Source of the DNA: a virus
UHGV virus genome: UHGV-2156197
Reading direction: 5' to 3' (one strand)
DNA length: 40,124 nucleotides
The notes under the pieces are model-generated. The model was not told where the DNA came from. It did no database searches and saw nothing but the letters and a program-made list of their open reading frames with translations. Position numbers and translations under genes: made by a program. This document shows, one piece after another, positions 8,008 through 32,217 of the stretch; the stretch's first letter is position 1, and every line of letters begins with the position of its first letter.

Positions 8008-8763
8008 TCAGCTCCTGATCAAAGATGTTCCGGGGAAACCACCATGCGAAAGCTCGTTATTTTCGCCGAATCGGAGTTTGCAGGCCGTCAGCGTGCCGTT
8101 GCATTCATCCAACGACGGATCGCTTACCGGGTTGTTGTTTTTGTCGAAATAGCGGGTGCCGGCATAGTCACAGCCGTCGCCGGTGCGGTATTTATTACGA
8201 ATGCACCAGGTGCATAGCGAATGAAGTTGCCGGGTAGGGATCATTAATCCCTGCAGGTCCATCGGGCTGGAGAGTGTGAACTCAACCACTTCGTTGGTTT
8301 CACCACTCTTTGCATCGATGTAGAAAACCTTCAGCTTTTCCTGAGTCGGATCTGCTGTGGGGTTGCCATCGACAAAGTTATTTGCATCAAGATATTTGCC
8401 CAGCGTGTCATGAATGGTCACCTTCGCCTGCAGCATATCGTCATAAGCCAGACAAAGTGCCGTTATGGAGCTATCAAGGTTAGCTACCGATAATTTTGGC
8501 TGCGCGCCGCTTCCATTGGTAGATGCCTCGATCCCCTCAATCTGGCAGGGCCAGGCTTTATACTCCTCGCCCTGCCACCAGATCGATTTTGCAGGCAGTT
8601 TATTTTCATCACCTCCGGCGGCAGTAATTGCCGCTTCAGTATGTGCCAGGCTGTAGCTGTGAAATCGCAGCACCTCCCCTGTACCAAAGGCCGTTCCGTC
8701 GACCTCGTAAAGCCTGACTTCATCGCCGGGCTCGAGCTTTTGATAATCAGCGTTCAGACTCAT
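8008..8763 (-). CDS. L: minor tail protein L
   Basis: 251 aa, similar to lambda gpL C-terminal Cys cluster region; overlaps K start. Confidence 0.85.
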   Translation of the reverse strand: MSLNADYQKLEPGDEVRLYEVDGTAFGTGEVLRFHSYSLAHTEAAITAAGGDENKLPAKSIWWQGEEYKAWPCQIEGIEASTNGSGAQPKLSVANLDSSITALCLAYDDMLQAKVTIHDTLGKYLDANNFVDGNPTADPTQEKLKVFYIDAKSGETNEVVEFTLSSPMDLQGLMIPTRQLHSLCTWCIRNKYRTGDGCDYAGTRYFDKNNNPVSDPSLDECNGTLTACKLRFGENNELSHGGFPGTSLIRS

Positions 8764-9098
8764 GGTTTAAATGCCTGCTGGAAAGTTGCGGAAAGGGAAT
8801 AGTTCTCACCTCCCATCGGAGTGGGTTTATACTCGGCGCAACGATATAAACCAAGCGGCTCAAGCGGCGGCTTCCACTGGAACGATTTTGTTCCTCCATG
8901 CCTGTCAAGAAAGGTTTTGATCGCCTGAATATATTCTTCCGTACCAACAAAATTCAGATCCCATTGCTGGCTGCGCGGATTGAGTCCGTCGCCAGAAATC
9001 TGCTCGTAACCATCCCCAAACCTGGCGCTTCTCGTTCTGAATGAGACGGTTTGCGTCGGGCTGACTCTGGGGCTCCAGGTAAAAGTTTCGATAGCCAT
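8760..9098 (-). CDS. M: minor tail protein M
   Basis: 112 aa; RFGDGY-Q and HGG-KSF-W-PP blocks as in lambda gpM. Confidence 0.8.
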   Translation of the reverse strand: MAIETFTWSPRVSPTQTVSFRTRSARFGDGYEQISGDGLNPRSQQWDLNFVGTEEYIQAIKTFLDRHGGTKSFQWKPPLEPLGLYRCAEYKPTPMGGENYSLSATFQQAFKP

Positions 9099-12100: not shown

Positions 12101-12430
12101 CGCAGCTTCATCAAGCGTCTTTAACTGGGCTCCGGTGGCACCAGTGATAGCCGACAGATCGGACAGGGCCTGTCCATATTCGCGCGTAGTCGTGATGATC
12201 GCGCCGAGCGATAACCCGGCACCGGCAAAGCCCGCCAGACGACCGGCAACTCCCGCGATGGTTTTACCCATTCGGGAATAGGCTTCATCGGTCTTTTTTG
12301 CATCTTCCTGCGCGCTACGATTGAAGCGCCTTGAGGAATTCTCAGCATCACCGTATGCACCCATCAGCTGAGATTTAAAATTGGCTGCGTTGAGATGCAG
12401 CCCGACGGCAAGGGAGGCAACGTCAGCCAT
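9101..12430 (-). CDS. tail tape measure protein
   Basis: About 1110 aa, alpha-helical Ala/Gln-rich, between G/GT and M; track start 12460 is GTG; ATG at 12430 overlaps the T-frame stop (TAATG). Confidence 0.85.
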   Translation of the reverse strand: MADVASLAVGLHLNAANFKSQLMGAYGDAENSSRRFNRSAQEDAKKTDEAYSRMGKTIAGVAGRLAGFAGAGLSLGAIITTTREYGQALSDLSAITGATGAQLKTLDEAAQEMGRSTEYSASQAVEALKLMASAKPELLQTADGLTEATKSALTLAQAAGSTLPDATRTLALSLNQFGAGAQEADRYINVLAAGAKFGASEIADTAAAIKNGGVAAAQAGVGFETLNAAIQVLAEREIKGGEAGTALRNVILALEKGTDKTLKPSIVGLSGALENLSKKNLSTAQAVKLFGVENINAASVLVDNRSKLDALTQALTGTQTAHEQAAIRVNNLNGDIMGLTSAFEGMIIKIGQSSTGPLRSGIQSVTDGINLLTDNFNAVASVALYTLIPVLSTKLTAGLRENVSAWQQNQAAVKAAAAAQADGARKTLEATAATLKRNDAEFGYYRQMEKIARQQGLNVNYQGEFNRLIREETEQTNLATRAKMQLAAANRQISVSARAASVAVGLARGALALVGGPFGAAMLAGSALLYFHQQAKDARQSAINLKDAVIETTAALMQMSDKQLAVKQIDLQDQYDNQVTQRNQLIKEIQDADSRLDSLGGFDPFRQKKGVEDSKKRAEADLESVNKGLETTQSNLENVSKARFLVQTGIADQAKSLASDIKTITAETAKAGEGVTTPWTGEDTQKAKKETVNQYLQLRREIEEAHATSLGKIDLQEKASQEKLIAAARKNGASQQDLQRALLMNAENYQKQRAELAEQYSPARSAINQEKEASQDLKSLLDARLLTEKEYMAARVKLSQETSRQILQAQADALSAPRIDLGGDVDPLVAIRNQLAQRQSLLQAYYAGNAISKNQYEMLMKQSSKESADAQYQTALELYRSQSDFNNLAIGLVEATRERTTNVLTGLLTKTQTFKEGMINLFSTLTQSIIQNLVDMAAQALLTNTILSSIMSVGSSVFGAVGSSAAASSGTAIADYGSNFQFNAKGGVYSSSDLSAYSGQVVDNPTFFAFAKGAGVMGEAGPEAIMPLTRAADGSLGVRAVNSGAAGGDTAPKVYITIDSSGNTSTQAPAGLEQFGSDVGRYVDQRYKQNVMRDIRPGGDIWNAMKGTR

Positions 12431-13031
12431 TACATTAACGCTCTCATTACGGCCGCGCACTGATCGTCAACATTACTGACTGCAGCGGGTGGCGGGTTTT
12501 CAGGAGGTGGCCCACTCTCCTCGCCTGGACGGCTGATGGCACCAGTACGCAGGAAATACGCGCGCCAGTGGTAGAGAGTGTCTACCGGGAGTGAAGCTAT
12601 CTTTGATGGATCGGGCTCGCCCCAGCGGTCAGCCAGCCAGAAAATCAGCTCAAGCCAGGGCGAGTTGGTTAGTTTTTTTCCGCATCCTCAAGTTTACCAA
12701 GGGCATGCTTTTTCACGGTGGCAATAGCTTCAAGCAGCGCCACGTTGTCATGTGCCTGCAGCAACTCCGATGCGGTGGGCTTGTCTTCAACTGAGATTGG
12801 ACTGCCGTCGGGCTGAACCAGACAATCGACAATCAACTGCACGCTTAGTTCTGAGGCTTTACGAGCATCTTCGGCAATCTGGCTGTCACGCAGCGCTTCT
12901 TCATGATCGATGAGTTCACCCGCCGTCATGCGACGAAGATAAACGGTCGTGCCAAAGATTTCGGCAGTAATAATGGCGCTTTTAGGTTTCAGAAGAGCAG
13001 ATTTCAATGCTGAGACATCGATGGCGGACAT
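12430..13031 (-). CDS. tail assembly chaperone G-T fusion made by programmed -1 frameshift
   Basis: After the slip the -1 frame is open for 79 codons (12668 down to stop TAA at 12432-12430) with no in-frame start; hand-translated, no stops. Confidence 0.55.
12669..13031 (-). CDS. tail assembly chaperone G
   Basis: 120 aa acidic protein directly upstream of the tape measure gene; ends GCG GAA AAA AAC TAA. Confidence 0.75.
   Translation of the reverse strand: MSAIDVSALKSALLKPKSAIITAEIFGTTVYLRRMTAGELIDHEEALRDSQIAEDARKASELSVQLIVDCLVQPDGSPISVEDKPTASELLQAHDNVALLEAIATVKKHALGKLEDAEKN
12672..12678 (-). other. slippery heptamer A_AAA_AAC for the G/GT -1 frameshift
   Basis: X_XXY_YYZ heptamer sits on the last sense codons of G immediately before its TAA. 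Confidence 0.55.
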
Positions 13032-13050: not shown

Positions 13051-13076
13051 ATAATAAAAAGCCGCCAGAAGGCGGC
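13051..13076 (-). terminator. rho-independent terminator after the major tail gene
   Basis: GCCGCC-AGAA-GGCGGC preceded on plus by ATAATAAAAA (T-run on the coding strand), 20 nt after the major tail stop. Confidence 0.6.
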
Positions 13077-13095
13077 TAATGAATGGTTTCGGGAA

Positions 13096-13548
13096 TCAGC
13101 TGCCAGCTGCGGTACCCCAGGTGATGTTGTTCTGTTTTCCCTGAACAGTGATTTGAATGACTTCACTTGCCGGGGCAGTAATTTCATTCATCTGCCAGCC
13201 AGACAGGGCCAGAATCATGTTCGCCGTTCGACCATTTGGCAACTCAACGTAAAACTGTACGGTTTCCCGGTTCTCTGCTGCGTTGAGGAAATCAGCAAAG
13301 TCCTGGTTGGCTGGATCGTCAATAAAGCCCAGAGATTTTTCAGGTCCTTCAGGCAGGTCAGAGATAAACTGTTTACTGGTATCGATCAGCGTAGTGCAGT
13401 CCACAAAACTGCCCGTCTGTCCTGTAGCGCCCAGCGCTCTACAGTTAATGAGTGGTTTCATTGTTGCTACGTTGCTGCCCGCAGCCCCCCACATAACGAC
13501 GGTGCCAGCAGGCAGCATCGCGTACTCTGGCGAAGTTTTATCAGCCAT
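13096..13548 (-). CDS. major tail (tube) protein
   Basis: 150 aa; position immediately upstream of G/GT and followed by a terminator, as for lambda V-type genes; call by synteny. Confidence 0.65.
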   Translation of the reverse strand: MADKTSPEYAMLPAGTVVMWGAAGSNVATMKPLINCRALGATGQTGSFVDCTTLIDTSKQFISDLPEGPEKSLGFIDDPANQDFADFLNAAENRETVQFYVELPNGRTANMILALSGWQMNEITAPASEVIQITVQGKQNNITWGTAAGS

Positions 13549-14696: not shown

Positions 14697-15019
14697 AGGC
14701 CATAAATCCTATAAGGCTGAAGAAGGGCTTCGACAGCGAGAGGAACCTGAGCCACAGTTTCACCAATGACGACGGATTCACGATTGGCGTACCAGTGTCC
14801 GATCAGCAGTAACATGGCCGCCTTCACATCGTCATTAAGAAGAATCGAGTCCGGGTCGTCTGCGTAGCCAGGGGAGCTTTGATTTTCATAGAGCGTTCGC
14901 CTTGTCCATGTCTGGACGTACCGGGCTGCCGCACCGGTGTATAAAGTCAGCAGGGCATCGTCTCCGGAAAAATCGGTATCAATGCGGCAGTGCTGTTTCA
15001 CCACATCAAGATCGACCAT
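14693..15019 (-). CDS. gp6-like head-tail connector protein
   Basis: 108 aa; VKQHCRIDTDFSGDDALLTLY... matches the gp6-like connector pattern. Confidence 0.7.
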   Translation of the reverse strand: MVDLDVVKQHCRIDTDFSGDDALLTLYTGAAARYVQTWTRRTLYENQSSPGYADDPDSILLNDDVKAAMLLLIGHWYANRESVVIGETVAQVPLAVEALLQPYRIYGL

Positions 15020-15243
15020 TATTTTTTCGCCTTTTTTTCCGCTTTTACTTCGGGCTGTTCCTGCTGCTGTTCCTGCTGCTGTTCCTGCTGCTGTTCCTGC
15101 TCTGCAGGATTTTCTGATTCATCGAGCATCGCATAGCCTTTTTTGATGAGCTCGCGACCGTGCTGTTCCAGAGTTTCCAGCGGAAGCCCCTCAGTAACGA
15201 CGGTACCGCCGAAATAAATCGGTTTAAGTGCAATCAGTTTCAT
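15019..15243 (-). CDS. small head-module protein with (EQQQ)n repeat
   Basis: 74 aa, ATG start, coupled to neighbours; C-terminal EQEQQQEQQQEQQQEQ plus lysine-rich tail. Confidence 0.5.
   Translation of the reverse strand: MKLIALKPIYFGGTVVTEGLPLETLEQHGRELIKKGYAMLDESENPAEQEQQQEQQQEQQQEQPEVKAEKKAKK
15055..15102. repeat. 12-bp tandem repeat CTGCTGCTGTTC, three full copies with partial flanking copies
   Basis: Perfect copies at 15061-15072, 15073-15084, 15085-15096; in frame, encoding EQQQ units. Confidence 0.8.
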
Positions 15244-31363: not shown

Positions 31364-32217
31364 CCTCTGAACCCCTCTGGAATCGTTGTTTCAACCGGAC
31401 CAAAAGCCATCACATCGCGCTTTTTCGCTCCCCAGTCAGCACGTTTAGGCCGTCCCTTCTGCTCCCAGCGGGTAGCGCTTTGCAGATAGCTCTCGAATTT
31501 CTTCGGGCCAAACAGCGTTTCCGGTCGCATGTACTGGTACTGCTCGTCGTTCTCGTGCCAGTGCTCATGCTTCAGGTCGATAACAAGTTGCAGGTCTGCA
31601 ACGCTGTATCCCTCACGCAGTCGGGCACGGATGTTCTCCAGGGATGTTTTTGATTTCTGATACCGGGATCCGCTGATTTGGTTCAAATGGGTCAGAACCA
31701 AAATTGCCTGATCAGTAATCACGACTTCAGGGTCTGGTTGCGCCGCAACCGGACAAGAGGGTTTTGAAGTTACTTGTGGATCTTGTTTTGATTTTACTGA
31801 CGGATCCCCGCCAGATTCTGACGGGTCAAAACCGCCGTTTTTGCCAGATTTCGACGGGTCAGTTTTTGAGGCGTCAAAATTTGATGCGTCAGATTTTGAC
31901 GTGTCAGAATCTGACAGTTGAGAAAATGCGGCAGCCTGAAGTTTCGCCACATTCAGGCGGTACACGTTCGACGCATTACGGTTACCATTACGGCGCTGTG
32001 TACGCGTGAGCCAGCCATCTTTTTCAAGCTTTGCGATTGCCGTTCTGATCGTGCTCGGCCCTGCGCCAAGCTGGCGAGCAATAGTTTCAATGGACGGCCA
32101 GCACACTCCCTCATCGCTGCTGAAATCAGCGAGGCGAGCCATGATCGCGACACTAGACAACTTCATGCCCGACGCCGCGCAACCATCCCATACGTAGCCG
32201 GTTAATTTAGTGCTCAT
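31360..32217 (-). CDS. replication initiator / replisome organizer (O-like)
   Basis: 285 aa; N-terminal HTH, low-complexity SD/SK linker, C-terminal conserved phage replication domain (LVLTHLNQISGSRYQ...); iterons inside the gene. Confidence 0.7.
   Translation of the reverse strand: MSTKLTGYVWDGCAASGMKLSSVAIMARLADFSSDEGVCWPSIETIARQLGAGPSTIRTAIAKLEKDGWLTRTQRRNGNRNASNVYRLNVAKLQAAAFSQLSDSDTSKSDASNFDASKTDPSKSGKNGGFDPSESGGDPSVKSKQDPQVTSKPSCPVAAQPDPEVVITDQAILVLTHLNQISGSRYQKSKTSLENIRARLREGYSVADLQLVIDLKHEHWHENDEQYQYMRPETLFGPKKFESYLQSATRWEQKGRPKRADWGAKKRDVMAFGPVETTIPEGFRG
31798..31921. repeat. origin-like iteron array inside the replication initiator gene
   Basis: Seven copies of TGAYGNGTCA-like 10-mer (31798, 31819, 31852, 31867, 31882, 31897, 31912); last five at exact 15-bp phasing; AT-rich tract just downstream. 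Confidence 0.6.

Follow-up and report, generated by a model that had tools for sequence, protein, structure and literature searches.

A putative -1 frameshift site for a G-T tail chaperone fusion in virus genome UHGV-2156197

Virus genome UHGV-2156197 (40,124 nucleotides, the whole of which is called the window here) carries a gene for a tail assembly chaperone, G, which is separated from the tape measure gene by an open reading frame (ORF) without a start codon of its own. How would this second frame, called T below, be expressed? A first-pass annotation, drawn from the letters of the sequence, had suggested that a programmed -1 frameshift on the last codons of G yields a G-T fusion (GT) of the kind found in long-tailed phages. 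Having followed up this suggestion by computational analysis, we conclude from sequence comparisons that a G-T fusion is very probably made by -1 ribosomal frameshifting at the heptamer A_AAA_AAC (12678..12672), and with the same high confidence we assign the site to G/GT recoding in the tail module of a lambdoid siphophage or prophage. Both the kind of site, from the lambda paradigm, and the family, from phiKO2 gp13/gp14 and PHROG 25875, were known before; the sole element that is possibly new is a covarying stem-loop downstream of the heptamer.

The slip site at the end of G

The final codons of G are GCG GAA AAA AAC TAA (protein end ...LEDAEKN*, stop at 12671..12669), and because the first A of the heptamer is the third base of GAA, the heptamer stands in X_XXY_YYZ register with G, the zero-frame stop following directly. 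All the features described in the first-pass annotation were recovered here on the minus strand, a detail that it had left unstated; G, the T extension and the tape measure gene are all encoded on that strand in this part of the window. The A residues of the heptamer belong to a run of seven (A7, 12679..12673). The -1 frame is closed upstream by a stop and is open for 85 codons in total (12687..12433). It overlaps G by 19 nucleotides only (12687..12669), and the heptamer lies inside this overlap. Past the heptamer the frame remains open for 80 codons, rather than the 79 first given, with no stop on re-inspection, and encodes LTNSPWLELIFWLADRWGEPDPSKIASLPVDTLYHWRAYFLRTGAISRPGEESGPPPENPPPAAVSNVDDQCAAVMRALM. 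The only ATG, GTG or TTG codons in this extension are codons 76 and 80, in keeping with the proposal that T lacks a start, and the last A of its TAA (12432..12430) is also the first base of the tape measure ATG (12430..12428), forming TAATG; the overlap had been foreseen, and its extent is corrected here to a single base. The fusion, 13031..12672 joined to 12672..12430, would be 200 amino acids long. As in a G/GT arrangement, two overlapping ORFs are thus found between the tube and tape measure genes, and the upstream one is a tail assembly chaperone by family and by fold.

We infer that the fusion is produced by ribosomal slippage, at a set ratio to G, in the following way. Most ribosomes would translate G (120 amino acids) and terminate at the UAA directly after A_AAA_AAC, while a small fraction would move back by one base on the heptamer. 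The slip is usually modelled as a re-pairing of tRNA-Lys, from AAA, and of tRNA-Asn, from AAC, to AAA AAA; equivalently, peptidyl-tRNA-Asn would slip while the stop codon occupies the A site. By either route the next codon would be CUA, 80 more codons would be read in the -1 frame as far as the UAA that overlaps the tape measure AUG, and the same 200-amino-acid product would result, running ...LEDAEKN-LTNSPWLEL... across the join. Slippage after the decoding of Asn predicts the junction peptide ...LEDAEKN-LTNSPWLELIFWLADR. If the parallel with lambda holds, the tape measure protein would be coated by G together with the G portion of GT, and the T portion would recruit the tube protein, at a fixed low GT:G ratio set by the slip frequency. 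This frequency is probably raised and tuned by the stem-loop 7 nucleotides downstream and by the invariant adjacent stop codon. A weak heptamer combined with a downstream stem and a slowly decoded adjacent stop would suit a product needed in small amounts.

The window contains 20 copies of AAAAAAC (8.3 expected), five of which stand in register within a long open frame. Only at the end of G is the -1 frame that follows a long one (80 codons versus 5-13), and the other in-register copies, in the portal gene and others, were rejected as recoding sites on this account. The open -1 frame could nonetheless have arisen by chance, if only an untranslated spacer separates G from the tape measure gene: the heptamer is common, and of all in-register positions within minus-strand genes of the window 1.7% have a -1 run of at least 80 codons (median run 9 codons). 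The decisive evidence, above such statistics from within the window, is the comparison with relatives.

Selection on the heptamer and on the -1 frame

Two scans supplied the relatives. The first gave 110 loci from genomes and viral contigs, 109 of them usable. The second gave 190 loci representing 102 distinct sequences and used a pattern open to every synonymous spelling of E/A-K-N (GAG/AAG/AAT); the baits included the peptide LE[DE]AEKN, in which the amino acids are constrained and the codons are free. An in-register heptamer 7 nucleotides before the G stop together with a -1 ORF of 67-87 codons was found in 107 of the 109 usable loci. In the second scan all 102 distinct sequences read GAA (once GCA) AAA AAC followed by TAA or TGA. 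Third positions of the three heptamer codons have an entropy of 0, as compared with 0.8-1.9 bits at adjacent third positions, and where Glu has changed to Ala (L071-L074) the new codon is GCA and the heptamer is retained. These comparisons show that the heptamer is under selection at the nucleotide level.

The T stretch was compared with eight relatives by the ratio of nonsynonymous to synonymous differences (pN/pS, Nei-Gojobori method), which lies at 0.13-0.40 for the -1 frame; the remaining frames give 0.8-10 or undefined values, and the differences pile up on third codon positions of the -1 frame. The peptide SPWLELIFWLADRWGEPDP...AAVMRALM is recognisable in relatives whose G is only 27-45% identical, and the T ORF is 67-87 codons long in 129 of 131 distinct homologues, in which the length differs by whole codons, mostly in a proline-rich linker. 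Judged from these alignments, the -1 ORF is shown to be under purifying selection as a protein. The peptide conservation and the pN/pS values, found low in the -1 frame only, already contradict a chance origin of the open frame, and the whole-codon length differences and the full-length profile match described below speak against it as well; we give that explanation next to no credence.

The stop of T and the start of the tape measure gene overlap as TAATG or TGATG in 95 of the 131 distinct loci. Loci from Xenorhabdus and Photorhabdus (L009, L013-L026) have a T stop without tape measure overlap (TAAGT, TAATT etc.) and a T end of ...VMKLLG. They retain the heptamer, the adjacent stop and the downstream stem, the latter with CCG/CGG in place of CCC/GGG.

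Family profiles agree with a joined product. The 200-amino-acid fusion matches PHROG 25875 ('tail assembly chaperone') over residues 7-200, which correspond to positions 2-195 of 195 (E 1.4e-80), whereas G alone covers positions 2-114 and T alone 116-195, so that the match crosses the junction. This full-length match implies that joined products of this family have already been catalogued. T residues 9-79 also match PHROG 14748 (73 amino acids, of unknown function). A Pfam scan of the fusion (E <=0.01) found PF16462 on residues 9-120 only and no family on residues 121-200. The comparison of the -1 peptide with T-domain sequences that had been proposed, made here with family profiles, was positive for PHROG and negative for Pfam, lambda gpT included: the Pfam model for the lambda gpT domain family (Phage_tail_T) does not recognise the T extension, which belongs to a different sequence family (PHROG 14748/25875). 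T may work like lambda T despite this separate family. NCBIfam holds no family for the G-T fusion and none for the tube protein, and a sequence search of the fusion against Protein Data Bank chains gave no meaningful match. A moderate model was obtained by structure prediction for G by itself. When G-only and T-only proteins were aligned jointly with MAFFT, the two halves were set on each other, and these alignments were excluded from the analysis.

T might instead be a separate small protein, initiated internally at a non-canonical CTG codon (MIFWLADRW...) with no frameshift. Public databases do hold 'hypothetical proteins' of 65-84 amino acids that correspond to T alone (P0044, P0046, P0047, P0053, P0059 and others), most of which begin MIFWLADRW, and PHROG 14748 likewise covers T only. 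In the window, however, no ATG, GTG or TTG precedes codon 76 of the 80, and among the 131 distinct T ORFs the first canonical start falls at or before codon 10 in 30, at codons 11-40 in 50, beyond codon 40 in 49 and nowhere in 2, so that no start position is conserved. Moreover, the residues SPWLE, upstream of the CTG, are conserved as protein, most gene callers predict no gene there, and separate initiation leaves the invariant heptamer and its register unexplained. The T-alone entries look like gene-caller artefacts in which CTG (Leu) was taken as a start, and we regard an independent T protein as very improbable.

Transcriptional slippage is the main rival to ribosomal frameshifting, the site being a homopolymer of seven A. 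RNA polymerase would add one A within the run, and the A8 mRNAs would be read from G into T, one inserted A giving exactly the T frame. Messenger RNA indels arising by transcriptional slippage are a possible cause of the under-representation of A7/U7 in E. coli genes (Sharma et al. 2014, PMC4066793). The two routes differ in that an A8 transcript would yield the junction ...AEKK-LTNSPW rather than ...AEKN-LTNSPW, although AEKK would also come from a ribosomal slip before Asn. Against slippage by the polymerase, all 102 distinct sequences have exactly seven A before a C and none has a longer run, and a T in place of this C, which would alter the amino acid in neither frame (AAU Asn; UUA/UUG Leu), is never seen. 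The fixed run length, register and flanking base suggest a constraint on the exact heptamer and not on homopolymer length, but this argument falls short of proof, since codons ending in C or U share one tRNA-Asn. Productive bacterial slippage sites are usually runs of at least nine A or T; the A7 found here falls short of that, although it is compatible with low-level slippage. Hairpins known to stimulate such slippage are situated upstream of the site, in the nascent RNA, whereas the covarying stem-loop of this family, a hallmark of ribosomal -1 signals, lies 7 nucleotides downstream. Finally, A_AAA_AAC is a proven site of low-level -1 ribosomal frameshifting in E. coli, in insA-insB' of the insertion sequence (IS) IS1 (PMC4066793). 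We therefore consider transcriptional slippage improbable as the source of the fusion.

The stem-loop downstream of the heptamer

A candidate stimulator of -1 ribosomal frameshifting follows the heptamer after a spacer of 7 nucleotides, UAACCAA (12671..12665), which includes the stop codon. The core helix has 6-7 G-C-rich pairs and closes a long loop of ~27-35 nucleotides. The stem is present in the minimum free energy fold of the window, with a z-score of -2.35 for the 64-nucleotide segment, and RNAalifold alone recovers a core of 6 base pairs (alignment columns 28-33 with 69-74). A hairpin a few nucleotides past the heptamer was found in all 10 representatives tested, in 9 of them on the same base helix; a Plesiomonas relative forms a different hairpin, 5 nucleotides after the heptamer.

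Among 59 distinct sequences, 86.6% of cells are paired, compared with 81.6 +/- 0.7% in shuffled data and 32-49% with slid partners, and double changes occur at 6 of the 11 stem pairs. For the 7-base-pair core in 99 distinct sequences the figure is 93.7%; 2000 shuffles gave 85.0 +/- 0.8% with a maximum of 88.0%, and slid partners gave 23-51%. Pair 30/72 joins third positions of Ser (TCG/TCA/TCC) and Gly (GGC/GGT/GGG) codons and is GC in 67 sequences, AU in 15, GU in 11 and CG in 1; pair 33/69 joins the third position of Pro (CCC/CCG/CCT/CCA) with the third base of a Trp, Leu, Phe or His codon and is CG in 49, GC in 35, UG in 2 and AU in 1. Fully paired haplotypes include CUCACCG/CGGUGAG, UUCGCCG/CGGCGAA and CUCCCCC/GGGGGAG, and C.A is frequent at the closing pair of the stem. 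When mapped onto a neighbour-joining tree derived from upstream G sequence, pair 30/72 changed state at least 11 times and pair 33/69 at least 7 times. This covariation shows base pairing in the stem to be under selection, and a structure ~5-9 nucleotides 3' of the heptamer, as expected of a tripartite signal, is kept.

As a further stimulator, a Shine-Dalgarno (SD)-like GAGGA at 12689..12685, 6 nucleotides upstream of the heptamer, was rejected because its synonymous site is not conserved: of 59 sequences, 18 have A for the middle G (GAAGA), which exchanges GAG for its synonym GAA. A search by eye for a pseudoknot between the loop and downstream sequence gave nothing convincing. Rfam 15 has no match in the whole window at the gathering score and none in 12420..12720 at E <=10. 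The papers that we searched do not describe the stem-loop.

The frameshift may be real and yet the stem-loop at 12664..12616 may have another role, namely mRNA protection or control of access to the tape measure start, or be a by-product of the SP..WGE codons. Most ribosomes would stop just before the stem, which would then persist on most mRNAs, and ~240 nucleotides beyond the G stop would be left untranslated by most ribosomes. Lambda G/T is described without a stimulatory structure (PMC5009743), for IS1, which has an identical heptamer, no stimulator has been established (PMC4066793), and the single-sequence z-score in the window is only -1.6 to -2.4. On the other hand, the third-position covariation is synonymous and has arisen several times, for which protein constraint alone is insufficient. 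The weakness of the heptamer makes a stimulator plausible, and 7 nucleotides is the canonical distance for -1 stimulators. A stem with no part in frameshifting thus appears rather unlikely to us, and we lean, on the strength of the covariation, towards the stem-loop as the frameshift stimulator for the weak heptamer. With slightly less assurance we favour the broader proposal that the stem-loop and the invariant adjacent stop form a dedicated stimulator that sets the GT:G ratio and is common to this enterobacterial phage G/GT family, whose scope would, with the same guarded preference, take in phiKO2, PY54, CharmingMan and prophages of Xenorhabdus, Serratia and Pantoea.

Several observations weigh against the proposed G/GT recoding site and its stem-loop. 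The LE[DE]AEKN bait left under-sampled those relatives that lack this C-terminus and perhaps the heptamer. A_AAA_AAC, although used by IS elements, ranks low in efficiency among E. coli heptamers (PMC4066793), and it lies within an A7 run that is compatible with RNA polymerase slippage. The annotation of phiKO2 gp14 is worded 'putative', and the AlphaFold2 model of the fused homologue P0001, computed from a T-rich alignment, has a predicted local distance difference test score of 50, too poor for use. As to the stem, the most distant relative (L030) folds differently, eight Pantoea-type sequences have a G.G mismatch in the core, and the arms fall in strongly conserved codons (SP..WGE), so that part of their conservation is due to protein constraint.

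Known systems, neighbouring genes and annotation

Klebsiella phage phiKO2 (NC_005857) is annotated with gp13 (8490..8858) and gp14 (join 8490..9097), the latter as a 'putative programmed frameshift from Gp13'. This phage and Yersinia phage PY54 (ORF14 region) carry true homologues, the window G being 53% identical to that of phiKO2 and 48% to that of PY54. Their T shares SPWLELIFWLADRWGEPDPSKIA...AAVMRALM with the window, GCGGAAAAAAACTAA is identical in all three, each with the heptamer 7 nucleotides before the G stop, and phiKO2 and the window have the same GAAAAAAACTAA. In both phages the -1 ORF has 78-80 codons after the slip, TAATG stands at the tape measure start and the neighbour genes are the same as in the window. 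They differ in the overlap between the frames (40-46 nucleotides, versus 19 in the window) and in that both are N15-like linear-plasmid prophages, whereas the window is a mosaic lambdoid phage or prophage. Our literature search found no experimental test of the frameshift in any phiKO2, PY54 or PHROG 25875 member.

The lambda G/G-T system was reportedly worked out by Levin, Hendrix & Casjens (1993) and Xu, Hendrix & Duda (2004, 2013, 2014). It has in common with the window the location between the tube and tape measure genes, the -1 direction, a slip close to where G ends on its 3' side and a T frame that has no start. The slip sites differ: that of lambda is G_GGA_AAG, unlike A_AAA_AAC with its immediate stop. 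The window G belongs to Phage_TAC_14 and not to lambda's family, and its T has no Pfam family. The lambda site is described without a 3' structure (PMC5009743), in contrast to the covarying stem-loop of the present family. In lambda, the tape measure is bound by gpG and by the G portion of gpGT, the tube protein by the T portion; both G and GT leave the finished tail and are absent from the virion, their ~30:1 ratio is critical, and the G/GT frameshift is conserved among long-tailed phages (Atkins et al. 2016, PMC5009743). By analogy we presume the same logic here, in binding roles, absence from the virion and a ratio of ~30:1, with the tube protein as the presumed binding partner of the T domain. 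That the locus represents the conserved G/GT arrangement, as the first-pass annotation had it, is supported by the gene order, the selection on the -1 frame, the invariant heptamer, PHROG 25875 and the phiKO2 annotation.

Similar signals outside phage tails offer partial parallels. IS1 uses the same heptamer, and there too a small amount of fusion protein is wanted, but its product is a transposase, it has no established stimulator and there is no sequence relationship. The E. coli dnaX and IS911/IS3-type signals combine an A_AAA_AAN-type heptamer with an RNA structure a few nucleotides downstream, as in the window; in these signals the structure is a stem-loop or pseudoknot, and an SD-like element may stand 5' of the heptamer. 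They use the efficient A_AAA_AAG instead of A_AAA_AAC, and the window differs from the tripartite dnaX/IS911 design in having no conserved SD-like element; its loop is long and no Rfam frameshift-element family matches.

The coordinates of the features are collected in Table 1. By Pfam the gene order is tube (PF16463), G (PF16462), the startless -1 ORF, tape measure (PF10145) and a lambda gpM-like gene (PF05939).

Table 1. Features of the G-T region of the window
Feature	Position	Strand	Remarks
Major tail tube protein gene	13096..13548	-	directly upstream of G; Pfam PF16463 Phage_TTP_13, E 5.6e-72; PHROG 158
G, tail assembly chaperone, 120 amino acids	12669..13031	-	PF16462 Phage_TAC_14, residues 9-120, E 5e-31
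-1 ORF (T frame including stop)	12687..12430	-	startless; between G and tape measure
Slippery heptamer A_AAA_AAC	12672..12678	-	X_XXY_YYZ register with G; zero-frame stop directly after
Candidate frameshift-stimulating stem-loop	12616..12664	-	5' arm CUCGCCCUGGC 12664..12654 pairs with 3' arm GCUGGGGCGAG 12626..12616
T extension, 80 codons, LTNSPWLELIFWLADRWGEPDPSKIASLP...QCAAVMRALM + stop	12430..12672	-	C at 12672 read twice
Tape measure protein gene, 1109 amino acids	9101..12430	-	Pfam PF10145; same start annotated in relatives

The nearest phages are Escherichia phages CharmingMan and Fostie (~90% nucleotide identity), and a Citrobacter freundii record holds a G protein that differs at 1 of 120 residues. 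Phage mEp235 and other lambdoid relatives of the head genes were set aside; they carry another tail-shaft module and are therefore uninformative on the slip site. In a subgroup of close relatives (L045-L059 and L076) a second in-register heptamer, A_AAA_AAA, lies inside G (VKK codons), ~43 nucleotides before the G stop; a -1 slip there would meet a stop within a few codons and so would truncate G only. The window has AAA AAG at this place, an in-register A_AAG tetramer.

The longest ORF of the tape measure gene begins at a GTG at 12460 (minus strand), whereas the conserved, annotated start is the ATG at 12430; the 10 extra codons fall within the T coding stretch (12430-12460). The 64-nucleotide gap between the tube gene and G contains a terminator-like hairpin, AGCCGCC-TTCT-GGCGGCT followed by TTTTATTATC (13060-13077, minus strand), and the phiKO2 record has a 'putative terminator' annotated at the equivalent place. 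This hairpin may reduce transcription of G and the downstream genes relative to that of the abundant tube protein. Elsewhere in the window, a perfect tandem repeat of 12 nucleotides x 4 (GCTGTTCCTGCT on the plus strand, 15054-15101) lies in the ORF 15243..15019 (minus strand), where it encodes an (EQQQ)n stretch of a 74-amino-acid protein with a lysine-rich tail at its end; the gene has the major capsid gene on one side and those of the head-tail connector on the other. At 31845-31915, in the early or replication region of the prophage, 15- and 30-nucleotide repeats contain the palindrome GTCAGATTTTGACGCGTCAAAATCTGA and could be binding sites such as iterons or operators.

A few records show G and T fused in frame. 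P0001 and the Logan assemblies L111 and L112 have A5 instead of A7 (L111 2350-2365), and Klebsiella phage Kpn74 (L006 1535-1560) has A6, with a missing T nearby and other indels. We did not count L111, L112 and Kpn74 as natural fused variants; they are probable homopolymer sequencing errors, given that the tape measure gene or many other genes are also broken in L111 and Kpn74. No such gene breakage was seen in L112.

In the closest records, those of CharmingMan, Fostie and an E. coli 21AR0133 prophage (annotated with PGAP), the 238-nucleotide T stretch carries no feature at all (L001 2433-2670, L002 2433-2670, L003 1893-2130; window 12433-12668). They name G only, as 'tail assembly chaperone' or 'phage tail protein', and the predicted GT product is missing. 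For annotation this means that a presumably essential product for tail assembly is absent from these closest records, and that others carry a spurious CTG-started protein. For the biology, the locus is very probably one more instance of the conserved G/GT frameshift. If the proposed role of the stem-loop is true, a stem-loop and an invariant stop beside a weak heptamer would make a compact and easily testable bacterial -1 signal, and the stem-loop would offer a way to ask how phages tune their GT:G ratio.

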